Shown here: positions 746 through 22,942 of the stretch, piece after piece
Position numbering within the stretch: the first letter of the stretch is position 1
Layout: every line of letters begins with the position of its first letter
Source: Escherichia phage PhiNW-E1
Sequence record: PQ476011.1
Length of the DNA stretch: 45,197 nt
Reading direction: 5' to 3' (one strand)
Notes under the pieces: model-generated
The model's database searches: none
What the model saw: the letters and a program-made list of their open reading frames with translations, nothing else
What the model was told of the DNA's origin: nothing
Translations under genes and position numbers: made by a program

Positions 746-1898
746 AGAATCACAGGCAGAAGCATTAAAGAGGTGGGAAAACCTTAAGGAGCTGCAAGAC
801 ACTTTTAAATATACAGCGGAAGGTTTGCTTCTCTTTGCAGATACAGTTATTCATAACTTAATTGCAGGCAACCCCCATCTGATTCGTATGCAGGCGGATA
901 TCTTGAAGTTCCTATTTTACGGACACAAGTACCGCCTCATCGAAGCGCCCCGTGGTATCGCTAAGACAACACTATCAGCAATCTATACGGTATTCCGTAT
1001 TATTCATGAACCGCATAAGCGTATCATGGTTGTGTCCCAAAACGCCAAGCGAGCAGAGGAAATCGCAGGTTGGGTAGTTAAAATCTTCCGTGGCTTAGAC
1101 TTTCTTGAGTTTATGCTGCCGGATATCTACGCTGGGGACCGTGCATCCGTTAAGGCGTTTGAGATTCATTACACCCTACGTGGCAGTGACAAGTCGCCTT
1201 CTGTGTCTTGTTACTCAATCGAAGCAGGTATGCAGGGTGCGCGTGCAGATATCATCCTAGCAGATGACGTTGAGTCAATGCAGAATGCTCGTACAGCGGC
1301 AGGACGTGCCTTGCTTGAGGAACTGACCAAGGAGTTTGAATCTATTAACCAGTTTGGTGATATTATCTACCTTGGTACTCCTCAGAACGTAAACTCTATC
1401 TACAATAACCTACCTGCTCGTGGTTACTCTGTTCGTATCTGGACTGCACGTTATCCCTCAGTGGAGCAGGAGCAATGCTATGGTGACTTCCTTGCACCTA
1501 TGATTGTGCAGGATATGAAGGACAACCCCGCACTTCGCTCAGGGTACGGGTTGGATGGTAATAGTGGTGCACCTTGTGCCCCTGAAATGTATGATGATGA
1601 AGTCCTGATTGAGAAGGAAATCTCGCAGGGTGCGGCTAAGTTCCAGCTTCAGTTCATGCTTAACACTCGCATGATGGATGCTGACCGCTATCCGCTACGC
1701 CTGAACAACCTCATCTTCACTTCATTCGGTACAGAGGAAGTCCCTGTGATGCCTACATGGAGCAACGACTCTATTAACATCATTGGCGATGCACCGAAGT
1801 ATGGCAATAAGCCTACAGACTTTATGTATCGCCCTGTGGCCCGACCGTATGAATGGGGCGCTGTCACCCGTAAAATTATGTACATTGACCCCGCTGGT
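732..1898 (+). CDS. Terminase large subunit, exon 1 (ATPase domain through ...KIMYIDPAG)
   Basis: RBS TTAAGGAGTG 718-727 then ATG 732; ORF runs to a stop at 1947-1949 but homology to T7 gp19 stops near YIDPAG; exon end at T1898 inferred from P1 pairing GCTGGT(1893-1898)/GCCAGC(1909-1914). Confidence 0.75.
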
Positions 1899-2644
1899 AA
1901 ACACCTCTGCCAGCGTAAAACCCTCTTAATTCGGTGGAACTCTCACTGAGACAATACCGAGCGAAGCCTGTTGCAATAACAGGAACGTGTAGAGACTAAC
2001 TGTAAGGCCAAGCGGTCTGAAACAGAGGGAGGCGCAAGCCTAAGATATAGTCCGACCTACTAGGTGACTAGTAGAAGTTAAAGTAGCGAATTAACGTAAC
2101 AATTGAAGGGAGTTAAATATGACAGAGCATAAAGTTTATCATATTCGTGTTGTTGGTGAAACTGATGTAATGCAAGGTTATATTGGTGTAACCTCCGATA
2201 TTAAGAAGCGTATGAGAGAGCACAAGTGTGCAGGCCGTCTTTGTGATGGCCGCGAGTACGTTATCTTATTCACTGGTAGCAAAGAAGAGTGTTATGCACT
2301 AGAAGAGAAGCTACGCCCACATGACAACATGTGTTGGAATAAGGGTAAAGGTGGTTATCGCAAAGCAGGTAACATCGAGAAAGGTGAACGCATAAGTATT
2401 GCCACTGAAATCAAGAAAGGACAGCACTTGTCTGTTGCCACTGAGTTCAAGAAAGGCATGACACCTTACAACAAAGGTACTGGCAAAGATTACATATTCA
2501 CTTCTCCAGATGGTGAAGAGTTTCTTGTAACTTGCATTACTGACTTCTGTAAAGAGCACAACCTAACACCTCAGAATATGCGTAAGGTGGCACGTGGTTT
2601 ACGTAAACACCACAAGGGTTGGCTCGCACGTCACGTTCAAACCG
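1899..2644 (+). mobile_element. Group I intron (IA-like core) carrying a homing endonuclease ORF
   Basis: P-like AATTCGGTGGAA 1928-1939; Q-like AATACCGAGC 1953-1962; R-like GTGTAGAGACTAAC 1987-2000; S AAGATATAGTCC 2041-2052; P3 CCCTCT 1921-1926 with AGAGGG 2024-2029; P7 GACTA/TAGTC; omega G at 2644; P10 CCTCT 1904-1908 with GGAGG 2645-2649. Confidence 0.7.
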
Positions 2645-2652
2645 GGAGGTAA
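2119..2652 (+). CDS. GIY-YIG homing endonuclease with NUMOD-like repeats, intron-encoded
   Basis: 177 aa; N-terminal KVYHIRVV...GYIGVT (GIY-YIG-like); repeated IATEIKKGQH / VATEFKKGMTPYNKG segments; RBS AGGGA 2106-2110; stop TAA 2650-2652 lies 8 nt into exon 2. Confidence 0.7.
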   Translation: MTEHKVYHIRVVGETDVMQGYIGVTSDIKKRMREHKCAGRLCDGREYVILFTGSKEECYALEEKLRPHDNMCWNKGKGGYRKAGNIEKGERISIATEIKKGQHLSVATEFKKGMTPYNKGTGKDYIFTSPDGEEFLVTCITDFCKEHNLTPQNMRKVARGLRKHHKGWLARHVQTGR

Positions 2653-3376
2653 GAATGGGGATGAAACGGGTGTGGCTATCGTCTTCCTGCACGGCACATT
2701 CATTTACGTGTATCAGTGCTTCGGTGTGCCAGGCGGATACCGTGAATCGTCCCTGAATCGCATTGTGCAGGCCGCAAAGCAGGCGGGTGTTAAAGAGGTA
2801 TTCATTGAGAAGAACTTTGGTCATGGCGCGTTTGAGGCCGTTATAAAGCCATACTTTGAACGAGAGTGGCCTGTAACTCTGGAAGAGGATTACGCCACAG
2901 GACAGAAAGAGTTGCGTATCATTGAGACGCTGGAGCCACTCATGGCGGCGCACAGGCTCATCTTCAATGCCGAGATGGTCAAGTCTGACCTTGAGTCAGT
3001 ACAGCACTATCCACTTGAACTACGCATGTCCTACAGTCTTTTCAATCAAATGTCGAACATCACGATTGAGAAGAACAGCCTCCGGCACGATGACCGCCTA
3101 GACGCCCTGTATGGCGCTATACGGCAATTAACTTCTCAGATAGACTATGACGAGGTTACACGGATTAATCGCCTCAGAGCGCAGGAGATGCGCGATTACA
3201 TCCATGCTATGAATACACCTCATCTACGCAGGGCAATGCTATATGGAGATTACGGTACTGAGCGAAGAGTGACCAACACTTCCGTAGCGATGCAGCAGCG
3301 AGTTTACGGGCAGAACTACCGAAATAAATCGGCAAGCAGAAATACACTTTCTGCAAGGATTTCAAGGACTTATTAA
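2645..3376 (+). CDS. Terminase large subunit, exon 2 (nuclease domain, begins GGKNGDETGVAIV)
   Basis: Frame continues from exon 1 when 1899-2644 is removed, giving ...YIDPAG|GGKNGDETG..., comparable to the T7 gp19 segment DPSGRGKDETG as I recall it; the ORF-track Met at 2594 is intronic. Confidence 0.75.
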   Translation, partial: GGKNGDETGVAIVFLHGTFIYVYQCFGVPGGYRESSLNRIVQAAKQAGVKEVFIEKNFGHGAFEAVIKPYFEREWPVTLEEDYATGQKELRIIETLEPLMAAHRLIFNAEMVKSDLESVQHYPLELRMSYSLFNQMSNITIEKNSLRHDDRLDALYGAIRQLTSQIDYDEVTRINRLRAQEMRDYIHAMNTPHLRRAMLYGDYGTERRVTNTSVAMQQRVYGQNYRNKSASRNTLSARISRTY

Positions 3377-3397
3377 TTACTGGACACTATAGAAGGA
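3375..3397 (+). promoter_or_regulatory. Phage RNAP promoter
   Basis: AATTACTGGACACTATAGAAGGA; predicted +1 G at 3392; overlaps terL stop codon. Confidence 0.7.
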
Positions 3398-3537
3398 AGG
3401 CCAAGATAATAAGATAAAATAATAGGTAATATATAGGTTAACCTAGGTTATATAGGTATGCCTTAGTATGGGTGTACTCCTGTACACCCTATTCCTTACT
3501 ACCTTACTATATTTACATAATAGGAGAGAGAGAGACA

Positions 3538-3813
3538 ATGGCTAATGATTATAGTAGTCAACCATTAACAGGTAAGTCTAAGAGAAAGCAGGTACAACCT
3601 GTAAGTGAAGAACTAATGCTTCCGGTAATCCCAAAAGAGGCAGCTAGTAAGAAAAGCAATGTTATTAATGATGCCACCAAATCAGGTAAACAGAAAGGGG
3701 CCATGGTATGCCTTGAAGTGGACGGTGCATTGAAGATTGCTATCGCTGTTGATGGCAAAGAAGATTCAGAGTGGAAGTTAGTGACAGGGGAACTCCCTGT
3801 TACCCCAGTTTAA
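3538..3813 (+). CDS. Hypothetical protein, paralog A of a tandem pair
   Basis: RBS AGGAGAGAGAGAGACA then ATG 3538; shares SGKQKGAMV-LE-D...IA-A motif with ORF 3832-4122. Confidence 0.6.
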   Translation: MANDYSSQPLTGKSKRKQVQPVSEELMLPVIPKEAASKKSNVINDATKSGKQKGAMVCLEVDGALKIAIAVDGKEDSEWKLVTGELPVTPV

Positions 3814-3831: not shown

Positions 3832-4122
3832 ATGGCTAAATATGGTACTACAGGTTCTGTTACTGGTCAGGCTTTTCGAGTAAAAACAGTACAAACTATT
3901 GCAACGGCAATCCCTATGCCTGTTGTTAAAGAAGCAGACCTTAAGAGTAAAGATCACCCTATCAACATCAAACACCTGTCAGGTAAGCAGAAAGGTGCAA
4001 TGGTTGCTCTTGAGAAGGATGACACAACCTTACATATTGCTGTTGCACGTGGTAGTGAACCCACAGACCCTTGGGATGTAACTGGTATGGAAGAGGAAGC
4101 TGTTACTCCAGCAGAGGTATAA
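3832..4122 (+). CDS. Hypothetical protein, paralog B of a tandem pair
   Basis: RBS GAGAAGGAGGAAG then ATG 3832; SGKQKGAMVALEKDDTTLHIAVA motif. Confidence 0.6.
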   Translation: MAKYGTTGSVTGQAFRVKTVQTIATAIPMPVVKEADLKSKDHPINIKHLSGKQKGAMVALEKDDTTLHIAVARGSEPTDPWDVTGMEEEAVTPAEV

Positions 4123-8113: not shown

Positions 8114-8961
8114 AGGTTAATATCTTAGTGTACACAAGGGCAGACTTAGGTTTGCTCTTAGTGTAATCCAAGGAGGTAACATGCAAGAGGAGAATTGGGA
8201 TGTGTAATGTTGGATATGGAGAAGGTTGAACCTTAGTGTTGTACAAGGATTAACCAAAGTAAAAATTTTGATATAGGCGTGTGTGAGGTGTCTCGCCCTC
8301 GCCCTCGCCGGATTTCCCCCATATGGGGCCGCGCTGCGGTTGGCTTGGGAATTGGGCTAGGCTGGTCCGTCTTCGACGGGTGGCCTAGGGCTTGCCGAAG
8401 TCTGCTCTTAGTGGCTGCACAAGGAGAACGCCTAGGAAGCGCTAGGGCACGCCTTAGTATTGGACAAGGTGATTGCCTTAGTGCAACCGCTTAGGGCTTA
8501 CACAGGCCGTTTTAGGGCCATTCCTGAGCATTTGACAGGGTGAGCGTGGGTTGGCTATCTGTTCGTTTCGCTCCACTACGTTACGCTACACTCACCGCGC
8601 TTGTGTACCTTAGGTTATTCCTTGATGGATAGCTTAGGTTAGCCTTAGTGGACTACCTTAGTTAAAGCCTTAGTGCTTAGCTTAGTATCAGCTTAGTAGT
8701 GTACCTTAGTCAGACTTAGTGTCTTCTCTTAGTGATTGCACATGCAAGCATGTAAGATGCCATTAGGTCGCGGTCGGTAGACCGCTAAAGAAAGAGAATA
8801 GTAATAAGATGCAGTAGGAGGAACACCAGAAACCTAGCCAACCTAGTCTATCCTAGCTCTGTATCTATTGCTTTCCTTAGTCTCACATGTTAGACAACCT
8901 ATGTTTATCTTAGTAGTTGTGACATGTATCACATAAATAATCTATCTTAGTGAAACTTAGT
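8114..8961. repeat. Array of about 25 CTTAGT-type short direct repeats in an ORF-poor region (presumed genome terminus / packaging region)
   Basis: Five longer units CTTAGTR-N4-6-CAAGG at 8114-8129, 8147-8163, 8232-8248, 8407-8424, 8458-8474; a GC-rich island at about 8285-8600 holds CTCGCC x3 (8292-8309) and palindrome CCCCCATATGGGG (8316-8328). Confidence 0.6.
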
Positions 8962-8962
8962 G

Positions 8963-8991
8963 TTGACATAGGCAATCAACTGGTATACATT
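8963..8991 (+). promoter_or_regulatory. Host sigma70-type early promoter
   Basis: TTGACA 8963-8968, 17-bp spacer, TACATT 8986-8991. Confidence 0.5.
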
Positions 8992-9141
8992 AGCAATCAC
9001 TGAGACGGACCTAGCAAGCTGTCTCAGGTTATAAGCAGGAGAATTGATGCGTAAGCCATAGCTAGTGGATGTAGTCGCATGAAGGCTTGAGTAAGGGGCC
9101 GCTTAATACCTTCTTCCTCTGGAGACAACGCTTATAACACT

Positions 9142-9154
9142 GCTCTTTAACAAT
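9142..9154 (+). promoter_or_regulatory. Conserved early-region motif GCTCTTTAACAAT, copy 1 (candidate RNase III processing site)
   Basis: One of four copies of a 13-mer in intergenic early-region positions; the same motif is in the T7 gene 0.3 leader as I recall it. Confidence 0.4.
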
Positions 9155-9212
9155 CTGCTTAGTGTAACCTATGTATGCCGTGGTTAATTACTTATTGAAT
9201 GAAGGATTAACT

Positions 9213-9867: not shown

Positions 9868-9900
9868 AAGCATCAAGACGGCGACGTCTTTAAACATCAC

Positions 9901-9913
9901 GCTCTTTAACAAT
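9901..9913 (+). promoter_or_regulatory. Conserved motif GCTCTTTAACAAT, copy 2
   Basis: Preceded by hairpin AAGACG-GCGA-CGTCTT. Confidence 0.4.
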
Positions 9914-10057
9914 AGAGATTAGGCCGGGAGTATCGGTGTGAGGGACAAGGAGGCTTTCCCACAATTAAACTGGTGGCAAAAGGATTGCCCAGCTTTATAG
10001 CCCAGTTATGGATAGCAATAGCGTAAGGATGGCAGCACACCCGCGAGTCTAATCTCT
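9914..10057 (+). ncRNA. ORF-less structured element between motif copies 2 and 3 (candidate small RNA or processing substrate)
   Basis: 144 nt with no ORF over 15 codons; ends pair as AGAGATTAG (9914-9922) with CTAATCTCT (10049-10057); internal hairpins. Confidence 0.3.
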
Positions 10058-10058
10058 A

Positions 10059-10071
10059 GCTCTTTAACAAT
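10059..10071 (+). promoter_or_regulatory. Conserved motif GCTCTTTAACAAT, copy 3
   Basis: Immediately 3' of the closing stem of the 9914-10057 element. Confidence 0.4.
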
Positions 10072-10116
10072 CTGGTTTGTGTCTTGATAGGCTTACTAAC
10101 AGAAAGGTAAATTATC

Positions 10117-10284
10117 ATGGAAACTTTAATCGTTACCACTACAATCAACGGCGTAAGTATCAGCATAACTAAGTATTCTTCCGAAGAGTATGAAGTGAAT
10201 CACGGAATAGCTGCTATGGTGTATGACAACTTGGCAGATGCCGTGGAGCATTGGATACAGTCATGTAAGGCTGCAATTAAGTAG
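10117..10284 (+). CDS. Early hypothetical protein (55 aa)
   Basis: Hand-translated; RBS AAAGG 10103-10107; flanked by 9-nt inverted repeat CTTGATAGG (10083-10091) / CCTATCAAG (10310-10318). Confidence 0.45.
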   Translation: METLIVTTTINGVSISITKYSSEEYEVNHGIAAMVYDNLADAVEHWIQSCKAAIK

Positions 10285-10329
10285 GAAAGATAAGGCTGGC
10301 ACTAGCCAGCCTATCAAGGCACAAGCCAC

Positions 10330-10342
10330 GCTCTTTAACAAT
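10330..10342 (+). promoter_or_regulatory. Conserved motif GCTCTTTAACAAT, copy 4
   Basis: Preceded by hairpin GGCTGGC-ACTA-GCCAGCC (10294-10311); lies in the leader of the ocr-like gene. Confidence 0.4.
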
Positions 10343-10438
10343 ATGGGTAGTCGCTTCTTAGTCTGGATAGGTTAAACCTAGGAGATTCTCTTGAGTCTCC
10401 TATAATGTAACCTAACTAACTAAATGAGGATTAATAAC

Positions 10439-10797: not shown

Positions 10798-10911
10798 ATG
10801 GAAAGGCAATATAACTTCATCTTCTCAGACGGTGTAACCCTGAAATGTTCCTTACGATTTGCGCAGATTCGTGAGGAAGTACTAGGAACTACATACAAGC
10901 TATTTAGCTGA
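10798..10911 (+). CDS. Small hypothetical protein (37 aa)
   Basis: Hand-translated; starts 3 nt after the ocr stop; no clear RBS. Confidence 0.3.
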   Translation: MERQYNFIFSDGVTLKCSLRFAQIREEVLGTTYKLFS

Positions 10912-10924
10912 CACTATAAGAGAA
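10902..10924 (+). promoter_or_regulatory. Variant phage promoter-like sequence
   Basis: ATTTAGCTGACACTATAAGAGAA; resembles the SP6-type ATTTAGGTGACACTATAG but has A at the +1 position. Confidence 0.35.
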
Positions 10925-10986
10925 GGCTTAACAAGGCGTTGCTACGGTAGCGCCTGATTAAACTTTCACTTACTAGGGTTAAGATT

Positions 10987-14854: not shown

Positions 14855-14862
14855 TATTAATA

Positions 14863-14893
14863 GGCCATTCCTTAGGGAGTGGCCTTTTTCTTT
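14863..14893 (+). terminator. Intrinsic terminator after the RNAP gene
   Basis: GGCCATTCC-TTAG-GGAGTGGCC 9-bp stem (one G-U) followed by TTTTTCTTT. Confidence 0.6.
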
Positions 14894-14928: not shown

Positions 14929-14944
14929 GTCTCACATGTGAGAC
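14929..14944. repeat. 16-bp perfect palindrome GTCTCACATGTGAGAC, copy 1
   Basis: One of six copies; 3 bp upstream of promoter 14947. Confidence 0.7.
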
Positions 14945-14946
14945 TT

Positions 14947-14969
14947 ATTTACCGGACACTATAGGATAG
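14947..14969 (+). promoter_or_regulatory. Phage RNAP promoter
   Basis: TATTTACCGGACACTATAGGATAG; +1 G at 14964. Confidence 0.65.
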
Positions 14970-15119
14970 CCGTCGGAGACGGGAAAGAAAGGGAAGATAA
15001 AGGATATAAAGGAAGTAATAGGTATTAAAGGTTATATAGGTTATCTAGGAATACCTAGGAATACCTATTACCTTCTTCCTTCCTCTTATTACCACTTAGA
15101 GGAAGGGCAGACCTAGGTT

Positions 15120-15135
15120 GTCTCACATGTGAGAC
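15120..15135. repeat. 16-bp palindrome GTCTCACATGTGAGAC, copy 2
   Basis: Immediately upstream of promoter-like 15141. Confidence 0.7.
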
Positions 15136-15140
15136 TTCGT

Positions 15141-15163
15141 ATTTACCGGACAGTATAGATAAG
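15141..15163 (+). promoter_or_regulatory. Variant phage promoter (C to G at -5)
   Basis: ATTTACCGGACAGTATAGATAAG; tandem with promoter 14947 across an AT-rich repeat region. Confidence 0.45.
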
Positions 15164-15185: not shown

Positions 15186-15602
15186 ATGCGTAAATCATTA
15201 GCTCAAAGAGTAGAGCAAGCAGGTTATACTATACAAGACGACGGTACTATCAAAGGTAGGCGAGGTAACATCTTGAAACCTTGGCTTCAATCTTCAGGTT
15301 ATCCAGTTGTAAATATAGTATTCAAGAAAGGTACAAGGACAACTACCCTTGTGCATCGCATAATTGCTAGTAAGTATTGTCCTTGCTCTGACCCGTTGGC
15401 TAATGATGTAAACCACAAAGACGGAATCAAGACTAATAATGCAGCTTCTAATCTTGAATGGATTACACGTAGGCAGAACCGTAATCACTATTTAGGTTTT
15501 GAGGACTATATGACACTTACGGCAGATGATGCCCGTAAGAAGAATAATGAGCGCACTATTGCTCGACGTAAATTACTTAAACAGTTGAATAATAAGGACT
15601 AA
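15186..15602 (+). CDS. HNH homing endonuclease (free-standing)
   Basis: 138 aa; RBS GGAGG; VHRIIASKY...NHKDGIKTNNAASNLEWITRRQN; paralog of 293-745. Confidence 0.75.
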   Translation: MRKSLAQRVEQAGYTIQDDGTIKGRRGNILKPWLQSSGYPVVNIVFKKGTRTTTLVHRIIASKYCPCSDPLANDVNHKDGIKTNNAASNLEWITRRQNRNHYLGFEDYMTLTADDARKKNNERTIARRKLLKQLNNKD

Positions 15603-19456: not shown

Positions 19457-19661
19457 ATTAAGCAAGGTTTGCTCTTGCGGTAAAGGTTATCGCAGTCGTA
19501 TTGATGGCAAGTGTGAAAACTGCCGCACTAAAAGGCAGAAAGATCACAATAATAAATACCACATGCACTTAATGTATCTTGACCTTAAAGCTACACCTGA
19601 TTCTGTATTAGGTAAAAGTCTTAGAGTTAAATACTTTGGAGCAATCTATGAAATCAAGTGA
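19443..19661 (+). CDS. Small zinc-ribbon-like protein
   Basis: 72 aa from ATG 19443; CSCGKGY...CENC. Confidence 0.45.
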   Translation: MKTIKLSKVCSCGKGYRSRIDGKCENCRTKRQKDHNNKYHMHLMYLDLKATPDSVLGKSLRVKYFGAIYEIK

Positions 19662-22194
19662 TTGGAAGAAGGAAGCAGAAGGTCGTATCTTAGTAATGGA
19701 TGCGGAAGCTAAAGGTCTGCTGGATACTATCCGCTACGGTCATCGTGAAGATGTACACATCATTTGCTGCATGGATTTGCTTACTACAGAGGAGTTCTTA
19801 TTCTTTGACCCATATGAGATGCGTGACCCTGAAGCAAGGGAACACCTGAAAGAGTGGGAAGGCCATCAAGATGGAACCTTGGTTGATGGTGTTAACTTCC
19901 TAAAGCACTGTGAAGCCATCGTCTCACAGAACTTCCTAGGGTACGACGGCCTTCTATTTGAGAAAGCATTCCCTGATATCTGGAAAGGCTTTAACTATAC
20001 CGAGAGACGCGGCAAGGGCAGACTCCGCGCTGACCTGTGTCCGGTACGCGTCATGGATACGCTGGTCATGAGTCGCCTGTTAAACCCCGATAGACGCCTT
20101 CCTCCGCAAGCATATGCCAAAGGTATGGGTAACGTCGCCCCTCACTCAATTGAGGCGCACGGCATCCGTATAGGCCGCTATAAACCGGAGAACGAGGACT
20201 GGTCTAAACTAACTGACCACATGGTTCACCGTGTACGCGAGGACGTGGCGATAGGCCGTGACCTATTCCTCTGGCTATTTAACGGAGAATGGACGGAGCA
20301 CAAACGCCGTGGCGTGAATAAACGCACTGGCCTAGGTATTGAGACAGCCTTCCACATGGAGTCCATTGTGGCGCTGGAGATGAGCCGTCAGGCCGAGCGT
20401 GGATTCCGTCTGGATATAGATAAAGCATTAGCACGATGCGAAGAACTGGACGCTAAGATTGATGAGACAGTCGCAGCGTTCCGCCCTCACATGCCTATGC
20501 GTATCAAGTCTAAACCTTTTAAACCGGAAGAAAAGAATGAAGTATGCCAACGCGCAAATGAGTATGGAGCTAGCAACAATATACCTACTGTCCTTGACCC
20601 CTCACACTTTCTTCATGCCGAGAGACGAGGAGATCGCAAGACAGTATGGAGTGTCACTACTAAGTCTGGTGATTGGTCGGCTAGTGTCAAGAAAGACTTT
20701 CCTCACCTTAGAGGAAACCGTAATGACACGCCAAGTATCAAGTGGATTGGTGCTTACTCGCCTGTTACTTTCGAAGAGATTCCCTTGGGTAACAGGGATA
20801 CAGTTAAGCAAGTGCTCTATGATTATGGATGGAAAGGTGTTGAATTTAACGATACCGAGCAAGCGCATCTGGATGAGTATGGAGTGTTACCCAAACCTTG
20901 GAGTGGGAAGATAAATGAAAAGTCCCTTACTTTATGGCAAGAGAGAGCCGCACGTGAAGGTAAAACAGTCCCTGATTGGTGCTTGGGTATCGCTGCATGG
21001 TACATACTCGTATCCCGTCGTGGTACGATCCTTAACCGTGGTGACGTTGAAGCCTTCGACCAGAAGGGGGTGTGGCCTTCGCAAGCTGGTGTACGAAAGT
21101 GTCGCGGCCTTGTACCTGTAGCATTTAACAAGGAGTTAGGAATCAATGCGCAGCAATACTATGAGAGGTATGGGTGTTGGCCTACGTCTGACAAGGATGA
21201 CGGAGAGTGGCGTGTTCCAGCTATTGCTATTAGTATTGGTACTTCTACGTTCCGTATGCGTCATCGTAACGTGGTTAATATTCCTGCCCGTGGCTTGTAT
21301 CCTTTACGTGATTTATTCATAGCAGGTAAAGGTAAGCTAATCCTCGGCTGTGATGGTGCTGGTCTTGAACTACGTGTACTATCTCACTTCATGAATGACC
21401 CTGAGTATCAAGATATTGTACTGCATGGTGATATACATACTCATAACCAGATGAAGGCTGGTCTTCCCAAGCGTGATATGGCGAAGACATTTATATATGC
21501 CTTCTTATATGGGTCTGGTATAGCTAACCTTGCAGCAGTATGCGGTGTTACTGAGGAAGAAATGAAGGAAGTTGTGGCAAGATTTGAGATTGAACTACCT
21601 TCCCTTGCACGTCTTCGTGAGAATGTTATCGCACAAGGTAACAAGTTTGGCTATCTACAAGCACCTGATGGGCATTGGGGTCGCATCCGTATGTCTGGTG
21701 GTGAACTTAAAGAGCACACTATGCTTAACGTACTACTCCAGATGACTGGCTCTCTGTGTATGAAATACGCATTGGTCAGAGCGTTTGCAGTGATGCGCAA
21801 GGAGGGTGTGGCTCTAGATAGCATGGGTAACCCTTGCGGTGTAGCTAACGTGCACGATGAAATCCAGATGGAAGTACCTGAAGATGAGGTCTTGTATCTC
21901 AACTACGACTTGCCTTTCACCGTAGAAGGGTTCGAAACAGAGAAGGCTGCTGTGAAAGCAGTGTTCGATGCAGAGGAGAAACGTGTTCATGTGGATTCTG
22001 AAGGACGTATGTGGTCTGCTGCAAATCTCGTTAGCGTTGATGCTGATGCTGGTGTACTTCATTGCCAGCGTCGTTATCACCGTGCAGGGCATATCATTGC
22101 CGATGCAATGACTTGGGCTGGTCATTATTTGAAGATGCGTTGTCCGATGGCAGGTGAGTATAAGATTGGTGCAAGCTGGAAGGAAACACACTGA
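19648..22194 (+). CDS. DNA polymerase, family A (T7 gp5 family) with 3'-5' exonuclease domain
   Basis: 848 aa from ATG 19648 (RBS GGAG 19637-19640); exo motif ILVMDAEAKGL; motif A CDGAGLELR; motif B DMAKTFIYAFLYGSG; motif C VHDEIQ. Confidence 0.9.
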   Translation: MKSSDWKKEAEGRILVMDAEAKGLLDTIRYGHREDVHIICCMDLLTTEEFLFFDPYEMRDPEAREHLKEWEGHQDGTLVDGVNFLKHCEAIVSQNFLGYDGLLFEKAFPDIWKGFNYTERRGKGRLRADLCPVRVMDTLVMSRLLNPDRRLPPQAYAKGMGNVAPHSIEAHGIRIGRYKPENEDWSKLTDHMVHRVREDVAIGRDLFLWLFNGEWTEHKRRGVNKRTGLGIETAFHMESIVALEMSRQAERGFRLDIDKALARCEELDAKIDETVAAFRPHMPMRIKSKPFKPEEKNEVCQRANEYGASNNIPTVLDPSHFLHAERRGDRKTVWSVTTKSGDWSASVKKDFPHLRGNRNDTPSIKWIGAYSPVTFEEIPLGNRDTVKQVLYDYGWKGVEFNDTEQAHLDEYGVLPKPWSGKINEKSLTLWQERAAREGKTVPDWCLGIAAWYILVSRRGTILNRGDVEAFDQKGVWPSQAGVRKCRGLVPVAFNKELGINAQQYYERYGCWPTSDKDDGEWRVPAIAISIGTSTFRMRHRNVVNIPARGLYPLRDLFIAGKGKLILGCDGAGLELRVLSHFMNDPEYQDIVLHGDIHTHNQMKAGLPKRDMAKTFIYAFLYGSGIANLAAVCGVTEEEMKEVVARFEIELPSLARLRENVIAQGNKFGYLQAPDGHWGRIRMSGGELKEHTMLNVLLQMTGSLCMKYALVRAFAVMRKEGVALDSMGNPCGVANVHDEIQMEVPEDEVLYLNYDLPFTVEGFETEKAAVKAVFDAEEKRVHVDSEGRMWSAANLVSVDADAGVLHCQRRYHRAGHIIADAMTWAGHYLKMRCPMAGEYKIGASWKETH

Positions 22195-22408: not shown

Positions 22409-22476
22409 GTTATACTCAAGGTCACTTACGAGTGGCCTTTATGAATAACTTATTCCTACTTATTTTGTCTAACATG

Positions 22477-22499
22477 ATTTACTGGACACTATAGAAGGA
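22477..22499 (+). promoter_or_regulatory. Phage RNAP promoter
   Basis: GATTTACTGGACACTATAGAAGGA; +1 G at 22494; followed by TAGGT-rich leader. Confidence 0.7.
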
Positions 22500-22564
22500 A
22501 AGCCTAGGTAATCTAGGTTTATAAGGTAGTATAGGTAATTAAGTAAATATAGGAGATATAAAAT

Positions 22565-22942
22565 ATGTCTATGGTAACTACTCTGGTATTCGTGGCTCAA
22601 TACTTTCGTGGTCTTGCTAATAAGTTCAAGTCCAAGGCTATCAAAGCTATTGAGGCTCGCATCGAAGCAGTACAGGCAGAGCAAGTTAAAGTTGAAGAAC
22701 ATCGTAGTTCTCAAATGATTGACTGCCATAACCGCTACTATGCATCTCGTGATGAACTAAATGCACGTCAAGTCAAAGAGGTAGAAGATATGCTGGCACG
22801 TCACCAGCAAGAGCGTGACAGCCTGAAAGCTGAATTTGAAGAGAACAAGGCATCAATTGCTCTTGTAAATCAAGCTGCATCTGACAGCCTGAAGAAAGAG
22901 ATTGTTATGCTGGAAATAGAACTGGACAACTTGACTAAATAA
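22565..22942 (+). CDS. Hypothetical coiled-coil protein
   Basis: 125 aa; RBS AGGAGAT. Confidence 0.55.
   Translation: MSMVTTLVFVAQYFRGLANKFKSKAIKAIEARIEAVQAEQVKVEEHRSSQMIDCHNRYYASRDELNARQVKEVEDMLARHQQERDSLKAEFEENKASIALVNQAASDSLKKEIVMLEIELDNLTK

Follow-up and report, generated by a model that had tools for sequence, protein, structure and literature searches.

Periodic AGG-Core Repeat Arrays Downstream of Phage Promoters in the K1-5-Like Escherichia Phage PhiNW-E1: Candidate Elements of Transcription-Primed Replication Origins

Genomic Context of the Promoter-Linked Loci

The DNA analyzed here (Escherichia phage PhiNW-E1, record PQ476011.1; 45,197 nucleotides, to which we will refer in its whole length as "the window") is a circularly permuted K1-5/K1E-like Vectrevirus genome (Autographiviridae, Molineuxvirinae) of the SP6/K1-5-like type, and its segment 3000–4200 shares ~96% identity with phage K1-5 and relatives. 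Members of the SP6/K1-5 group are widely used, both for their RNA polymerase and in K1-capsule phage therapy work. The + strand of the window carries twelve phage RNA polymerase promoters of the type TTTACTGGACACTATAGAAG, and the promoter consensus has 10 matches in the window versus 0.01 expected by chance. A promoter-like variant (ATTTAGCTGACACTATAAGAG, 10900–10925), with A instead of G at +1 and situated upstream of a small early/middle gene, may represent a thirteenth, weaker phage promoter. We will refer to the three promoter-linked sites treated in this work as loci A, B and C; their coordinates are given along the + strand unless otherwise stated.

Locus A begins with promoter A (ATTACTGGACACTATAGAAG, 3376–3395; +1 at G3392, one mismatch to the window consensus), which overlaps the stop codon of the terminase large subunit gene (K1-5 gene 40). 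This gene is interrupted at 1826–2074 (+ strand) by a group I intron (Rfam RF00028, 61 bits) and therefore appears as two separate ORFs (693–1949 and 2594–3376). The ORF that follows the intron (2119–2652, 177 aa) shows sub-threshold GIY-YIG and NUMOD-like matches, and is therefore probably a homing endonuclease; the terminase is split in a similar way in the K1-ULIP33 and K1E records. Leader A (3392–3469, continuing to 3537) contains 67% purine and 70% AT, with 5 C in 70 nt, and is arranged as a purine-rich array with four TAGGT, a single CCTTAGT box closing the array (3461–3467; GCCTTAGT in most relatives), a GC hairpin (GGGTGTAC-TCCT-GTACACCC, then TATTCCTT; 3470–3489), a pyrimidine-rich (CT) tract occupying the gap between hairpin and ribosome-binding site (3490–3520, present in all relatives) and, finally, the Shine-Dalgarno (SD) sequence TAGGAG and the ATG (3538–3540) of gene 41, both within 3521–3540. 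With its 8-bp stem, 5 GC pairs and T-rich tail TATTCCTT, the hairpin has the makeup of an intrinsic terminator; in MK373773 and MW394389 its equivalent bears the annotation of a putative terminator, and its stem sequence varies among relatives with pairing kept. A uORF or N-terminal extension running through the hairpin and the CT tract can be read in the window; by eye it is not conserved in SP6, and this candidate was discarded. Genes 41 (3538–3813, 91 aa) and 42 (3832–4122) are paralogues with a common SGKQKGAMV.LE motif, and both match phrog_2725, whose label "acetyl-CoA acetyltransferase" looks unfounded for proteins of ~90 aa.

Promoter B (22478–22497; +1 at G22494, exact consensus) is situated downstream of the DNA polymerase gene (19636–22194) and of a T7 R1.1-like hairpin, and upstream of a 125-aa ORF whose ATG lies at 22565. 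Leader B (22494–22564; 71% AT, 3 C in 70 nt) consists almost entirely of units spaced by 8–10 nt (22505, 22514, 22523, 22532, 22540), the last one being the SD itself at 22550. Hairpins resembling T7 R1.1/R1.3 (AAGGTCAyTc...GAGTGGCCTTTATGA) are found at 22410–22450 and 14860–14890, upstream of promoter B and of the locus C promoters, respectively; judged by their sequence, they are probably processing sites and not terminators.

Locus C (14948–15161) lies between two promoters, 3' of the RNA polymerase gene. Promoter 1 (14948–14967, +1 at 14964) is followed by a 5' hairpin (CCGTCGGAGACGG, 14970–14982), seven NAGGW units (15000–15060), inverted WCCTW units (15052–15090), a further hairpin and a palindrome (GTCTCACATGTGAGAC, 15120–15135) adjoining promoter 2 (+1 at 15158). 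This 16-bp palindrome is found directly upstream of both promoters (14929–14944 and 15120–15135), and an imperfect copy is present in the left-end region (8878–8893). The palindrome of Proteus phage Pm5460 (GTCCAACATGTTGGAC) shows symmetric changes relative to GTCTCACATGTGAGAC, and in SP6 a G-U pair preserves the pairing; this points to an RNA hairpin or a terminator. Promoter 1 could give rise to a discrete non-coding RNA of ~180 nt ending at the palindrome. An HNH endonuclease gene (15186–15602; phrog_959, E=8.5e-34) directly follows locus C, its position being taken in SP6 by a small gp1.1-like gene.

Repeats are also present in the probable left-end region. About 12 CCTTAGT units with 11–12 bp spacing occupy 8600–8735, and 19 of the 33 CTTAGT sites of the genome are found within 8124–9158; this array seems to correspond to the T7 short terminal repeats. 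On the minus strand, three CTAGG[TA] units followed by a palindrome (GTCTCACATGTTAGAC) form an element at 8833–8857 similar to the right half of locus C, with a like element in SP6 and in Proteus phage Pm5460. An ATCTGTT box at ~8556, preceding the CCTTAGT array, presumably resembles the T7 class II pause signal. Several CGCTCTTTAACAAT boxes are located in the early region (9890–10345 and 9140–9155); we take this motif to occur in the T7 early leader as well, as part of the R0.3 RNase III site.

Periodic AGG-Core Arrays in Three Leaders

The initial annotation described the leaders after promoters A and B as built from TAGGT units, and the window bears this out. Leader A contains four TAGGT in 31 bp, at 3423, 3434, 3444 and 3453 (3423–3457), spaced by 11, 10 and 9 bp. 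In leader B the array spans 22505–22536, with three TAGGT (22505, 22514, 22532) and one AAGGT (22523), followed by a degenerate TAAGT at 22540 and by the true SD, TAGGAG, at 22550, in register with the array. The likeness to a candidate origin at 14970–15140, also put forward in that annotation, is equally apparent, as locus C contains seven [TAC]AGG[TA] units at 15000–15056. The array unit can be summarized as ~aTAGGTAaT with a period of 9–10 bp, the AGG core being more conserved than the spacers.

These arrays are not a by-product of composition. The three leaders lie at about the 99th genome percentile for purine and AT content, with 3–5 C per first 70 nt, and the possibility that TAGGT is no more frequent there than AT content predicts was addressed with dinucleotide shuffles at two scales. 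Four TAGGT within 35 bp were obtained in 0 of 300 dinucleotide-preserving shuffles of the genome, the maximum of 3 being reached in 10 of the 300. When the leaders themselves were shuffled in the same manner, keeping their AT content, the excess persisted at all three loci (P=0.001 for A, 0.017 for B and 0.012 for C). Furthermore, the genome has 212 [TA]AGGT sites, and runs of at least three at 8–12 bp spacing occur only at loci A, B and C, all of them just downstream of phage promoters (transcription starts 3392, 22494 and 14964, respectively). A scan of all 1024 pentamers returned periodic runs of at least four units for only two of them, TAGGT (locus A) and TTAGT (8658–8693, in the terminal region).

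Conservation across Molineuxvirinae

The clustering recurs in related phages. Arrays A and C are present in all five Molineuxvirinae lineages examined, SP6, Proteus, Pectobacterium and Klebsiella phages included. For leader A, the comparison comprised SP6 (Zindervirus), Proteus Pm5460 (Acadevirus), Pectobacterium POP72 (Axomammavirus) and two unclassified Klebsiella phage lineages, and the whole architecture (promoter, array, GCCTTAGT, hairpin, CT tract, SD) recurs across these genera, whose terminases share ~70–74% protein identity. Locus C is present in 23 of the 23 distinct relatives compared, and its 5' hairpin (CCGTC-GGA-GACGG) shows compensatory changes (CCGTC/GACGG, CCATC/GATGG, CCCTC/GAGGG and CCTTC/GAAGG in L075–L099), the third stem pair covarying as G:C, A:T, C:G and T:A across relatives. 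Array B is lineage-specific: it is found in Vectrevirus and Zindervirus, with two units in one more distant relative, and is absent from Pm5460 and from Klebsiella-group relatives that retain the downstream gene; L047 is one relative with the gene and no array. Since the array is gone while the gene stays, B is not needed for the expression of that gene.

Pooling 62 leaders gives the unit consensus w-n-(A/C)-T-A-G-G-T-A-(A/G)-T. Spacings of 9 bp (109 intervals) and 10 bp (109) dominate over those of 11 bp (21) and 8 bp (9), so that 218 of the 262 intervals measure 9 or 10 bp; the mean period is ~9.5 bp and each array has 3–8 units. In an 11-sequence cross-genus alignment, the AGG columns are 92% identical versus 70% for the other array columns (P=2.5e-4), a difference to be read with the tendency of the aligner to anchor on AGG cores in mind.

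This pattern bears on the view that the arrays arose neutrally, by slippage within an AT-rich spacer, and were inherited by common descent with no function of their own. The number of units varies among close relatives, and the array of one of them (L021) contains an (AT)n expansion, which show that slippage is ongoing. Nonetheless, the arrays have been retained at two homologous loci in genera with terminases only ~70% identical, their cores are significantly more conserved than their spacers, and the same unit is common to three independent loci; we thus consider a purely neutral origin very unlikely.

Beyond the subfamily, a fixed-pattern search returned 118 stretches, approximately the chance level by a rough estimate, and those outside the SP6 group were unrelated repeat arrays. 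Among the viral contigs of IMG/VR, nine (L117, L140, L169, L174, L126, L148, L168, L118 and L167) contain GTAGGTC/GTAGGTT direct repeats every 8–11 bp, with AT-rich DNA before the array and an inverted GACCTAC after it, in a layout that recalls iteron origins; these phages are unrelated to the SP6 group.

Duplex Stability and Hybrid Thermodynamics

The nearest-neighbor duplex energy was computed downstream of every promoter of the window and of T7, with parameter tables entered by hand. Leader A (+1 to +60 of its promoter) holds the weakest 50-bp duplex window of the genome (0.00%), leaders B and C ranking at the 0.01 and 0.09 percentiles; the three are the weakest promoter-downstream segments in the window. 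By the same metric, the five weakest promoters of T7 are phiOL, phi1.1B, phi6.5, phi10 and phiOR. Among these, phiOL is presumably an origin. Three others of the five (phi1.1B, phi6.5 and phiOR) are reported origins, and phi10 is not a reported one (PMC8373140). Weak duplex is also found in strongly expressed leaders, such as those of T7 phi10 and of the capsid promoter of the window (32651).

The repeat unit itself is remarkable in this regard: no NNGGNN hexamer forms a less stable duplex than TAGGTA, and the observed variants TAGGTT, TAGGAA and AAGGTA rank among those that come next. The arrays thus appear to be about as meltable as DNA can be when a GG step has to enter the transcript every 9–10 nt. 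Moreover, in 8 of 8 SP6-group arrays the RNA:DNA hybrid is favored over duplex DNA beyond composition-matched shuffles (P from <0.001 to 0.023), and the same shuffle test detected no such dinucleotide arrangement in the T7 origins. An R-loop score (hybrid versus duplex) was also considered as a genome-wide outlier measure, and was rejected because of its inconsistent percentiles (0.2 to 35).

Leader and RNA-Structure Explanations

The initial annotation had listed a shared translational or processing signal among the possible roles of the leaders, and this suggestion is weakened. In its translational form, the arrays would provide an unstructured, C-poor 5' region in which AGGU/AGGA act as weak SD-like standby or stabilizing sites, raising the translation or stability of the downstream genes (gene 41/42 with the lysis cassette, and the ORF at 22565). 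Several traits agree with it: in each of the three leaders the units read in the sense direction; AGGT and AGGA, both SD sub-motifs, are interchangeable; the real SD of B (TAGGAG) is the last in-register unit, the SDs of this phage being ATAGGAG-like; and leaders A and B are devoid of the 5' hairpin carried by most other leaders in the genome. The affinity of the units for the anti-SD is, however, only -3.6 to -3.8 kcal/mol, versus -7.3 to -13.4 kcal/mol for the real SDs of the genome, so that pairing with the 16S 3' end is weak, and placement with respect to a start codon is correct only for the last unit of B. Array A lies ~80 nt upstream of its start codon and is cut off from the gene by the terminator-like hairpin, locus C has no ORF before the next promoter, and array B is dispensable in the gene-keeping relatives mentioned above (e.g., L047). 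Besides, the strongest late leader (capsid gene, 32651) has no array, and locus C and the left-end region hold inverted copies of the unit. On balance, we regard a leader function of this kind as unlikely.

An extended fold was the other way in which the arrays could act through RNA, i.e., as one arm of a long hairpin, a T7-type RNase III site or another structured RNA. Locus C offers grounds for it, as its array pairs with the downstream inverted CCT units (MFE -53 kcal/mol, z = -2.5) and similar folds are obtained for SP6 and Pm5460; in leader A, the CT-rich tract after the hairpin could supply a partner strand. Nevertheless, leaders A and B fold no better than their shuffles (z = -1.1 and -1.65, respectively), the duplex between array and CT tract does not exceed that with a shuffled CT tract in 10 of 11 relatives, the partition function contains few cross pairs, and no alifold consensus emerged from the MAFFT alignment. 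The arrays show neither an extended hairpin (A and B) nor similarity to R1.1/R1.3, as would be expected from T7-type RNase III sites, and Rfam 15 at gathering score placed no family at the leaders, the group I intron at 1826–2074 being its only match in the window. Structured RNA is thus largely refuted for A and B, and we deem it extremely improbable as the general explanation.

Possible Recognition by a Sequence-Specific Factor

Binding sites for a factor had also been proposed for these leaders. In this sense, (T/A)AGG(T/A) would be recognized, in DNA or in the nascent RNA, by a phage or host protein that regulates the promoters or assembles a replication or processing complex in an iteron-like manner. 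Across genera the AGG core never varies and the consensus of the unit is tight, while the spacers drift; the spacing is regular at 9–10 bp, with 3 to 8 units as in iteron arrays; and the units appear in both orientations at locus C and in the left-end region, which fits DNA recognition better than an mRNA signal. The unrelated contigs with GTAGGTC direct repeats, AT-rich DNA and an inverted copy provide a parallel for such an origin-like layout. Against these points, no candidate binding protein was found and no Pfam domains were detected in the neighboring uncharacterized ORFs, the primase-helicase aligns to T7 gp4 with no extra domain, and sites repeated every 9.5 bp do not stay on a single face of the B-DNA helix. 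Nor do the units covary with promoter specificity, so that the promoter-recognition elements of the phage RNA polymerase are not the reader. We consider an iteron-like factor fairly unlikely as an explanation of the arrays.

A related idea, in which the units were promoter fragments acting as RNA polymerase decoys, arose from the SP6 promoter, which contains TAGGT (TTAGGTGACAC). It was rejected: the promoters of the K1-5 type (TACTGGACAC) and of the Proteus phage (AAAGACCAC) have no TAGGT and the arrays are kept, from which it follows that the units do not track RNA polymerase specificity.

Classical iterons are 17–22 bp long and helix-phased. The arrays have at least three regularly spaced direct repeats, as iterons do, with a unit of 9–10 bp in place of the helix-phased one of 17–22 bp. 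A fairly unlikely extension is that (T/A)AGG(T/A) constitutes a set of putative recognition sites for a phage or host protein, or for the replisome on the displaced strand, in which case the AGG core would be functional in itself and not a mere expression of AT-richness. If so, promoter-linked origins in the SP6/K1-5 group would, in contrast to those of T7, be marked by iteron-like arrays, at three internal loci and possibly by a fourth element in the left-end region.

Candidate Unwinding Elements of Transcription-Primed Origins

The reading that we favor, with a probability of about 0.4, is that the arrays may serve as unwinding elements of promoter-linked, transcription-primed replication origins of the T7 style. 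The T7 primary origin has an AT-rich region just downstream. Replication of T7 starts at phi1.1A/phi1.1B, with secondary origins such as phiOR and phi6.5, and a T7 promoter is required by every T7 origin; a plasmid origin based on phiOR has been proposed to work via an R-loop (PMC8373140). Loci A, B and C share both traits, i.e., a phage promoter directly upstream and an AT-rich, easily melted segment downstream. By analogy with the promoter requirement of the T7 origins and the AT-rich region of the primary one, we infer that the arrays could be the zone of unwinding and primer transfer.

Gene order adds to the analogy. At locus C, the RNA polymerase gene is followed by two promoters, in the manner of T7 phi1.1A/B; at locus A, a promoter with a ~150-nt leader comes after the terminase large subunit gene, in the manner of phiOR; locus B, after the DNA polymerase gene, has no positional counterpart in T7. 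The reading also draws on the confinement of the arrays to DNA directly after phage promoters, on the presence of A and C in every lineage examined, on the dispensability of B for its gene, on the conserved AGG cores, and on the preference for an RNA:DNA hybrid. The secondary origins suggested in the initial annotation thus gain circumstantial support, on the one hand from the weakest duplexes found after promoters and, on the other, from the location of A and C at the phiOR and phi1.1A/B positions, the replication role as such being drawn by analogy.

Broadly, the phage RNA polymerase would open the duplex while laying down a G-containing, C-poor transcript; the weak duplex might then remain open, or an R-loop might form, and the phage DNA polymerase and the primase-helicase would subsequently take over. 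The arrays would therein constitute the zone of unwinding and primer transfer of transcription-activated origins. Under this model, the primary origin would be locus C, 3' of the RNA polymerase gene; locus A (3' of the terminase gene, at the position of T7 phiOR) would serve as a conserved secondary origin, and locus B as a secondary origin representing a lineage-specific extra copy.

Some observations sit less easily with origin elements defined by melting. GC skew is positive throughout the window and gives no clear origin signal, with just a weak detrended minimum near locus C. The T7 origins have neither a periodic motif nor the hybrid preference, so that the T7 model does not account for the AGG periodicity. 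Weak duplexes in strongly expressed leaders, and the lack of a T7 counterpart for locus B, likewise count against the reading. Furthermore, the A in AGG is fully invariant, beyond what small stacking-energy effects would produce, which points to sequence-specific recognition and counts against the unwinding interpretation.

Priming was also considered at the sequence level. SP6 primase recognizes 5'-GCA-3'. The idea that the arrays provide primase sites was rejected, as no repeated GCA exists on their displaced strand; a GGGCAGAC box lies after array C, its conservation being restricted to part of the family.

Significance of the Arrays

Whatever their role, the arrays are real and conserved, and these leaders are currently left unlabeled by genome annotators. 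Origins have been mapped in T7; the literature searched, with the original genome papers (Dobbins 2004; Scholl 2004) outside its scope and an earlier mention in them possible, contained no description of origins or of such repeats for the SP6/K1-5 group. If the arrays were origin elements, they would supply precise coordinates for primary and secondary origins across the whole subfamily, as well as a compact promoter-plus-array module for orthogonal transcription-primed plasmids, comparable to the T7 ori plasmids (PMC8373140). If, alternatively, the AGG core were read by a factor, a sequence-specific component would be added to a replication or expression system thought to need none.

Comparison with Known Systems

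The arrays share traits with four known systems. The first comparison is with standby sites and the STAB-SD of Gram-positive mRNAs, which also display AGGA/AGGU in an unstructured 5' leader without using it for initiation; the arrays differ in their weak pairing with the anti-SD, their many copies, the existence of one locus with no ORF and the inverted copies.

The T7 terminal short repeats (SRL/SRR) consist of CCTAAAG/CCTAAGG units next to the terminal repetition. Both they and the arrays are formed by units of ~7–12 bp in the non-coding DNA of a T7-supergroup phage, their cores are related (ACCTAAAG is the reverse complement of CTTTAGGT), and the window has in addition a terminal-region array of its own (CCTTAGT, 8600–8735). 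The TAGGT arrays, however, are internal, promoter-proximal and in the transcribed sense orientation, whereas the terminal arrays of this genome use the core CTTAGT with a 12-bp period; a single CCTTAGT box is found in leader A.

With iteron origins, the arrays have in common the regular direct repeats adjoining easily melted DNA and the inverted copies at locus C. They depart from them in a unit of half the usual length and a period of 9–10 bp, not 11 or 22; no initiator gene was found among the neighbors, and the arrays are placed in the transcribed region of a phage promoter.

T7 origins likewise combine a phage promoter with the least stable AT-rich DNA after it, and a long leader before a small gene. 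On the other hand, T7 leaders have no periodic AGG-core unit and contain irregular CTTAAG/CTTTAAG-type motifs instead, and locus A has a conserved hairpin and a CT tract in addition. The arrays of the SP6/K1-5 group are thus set apart from T7 origins by their conserved periodic unit, and from classical iterons by the length and phasing of that unit.
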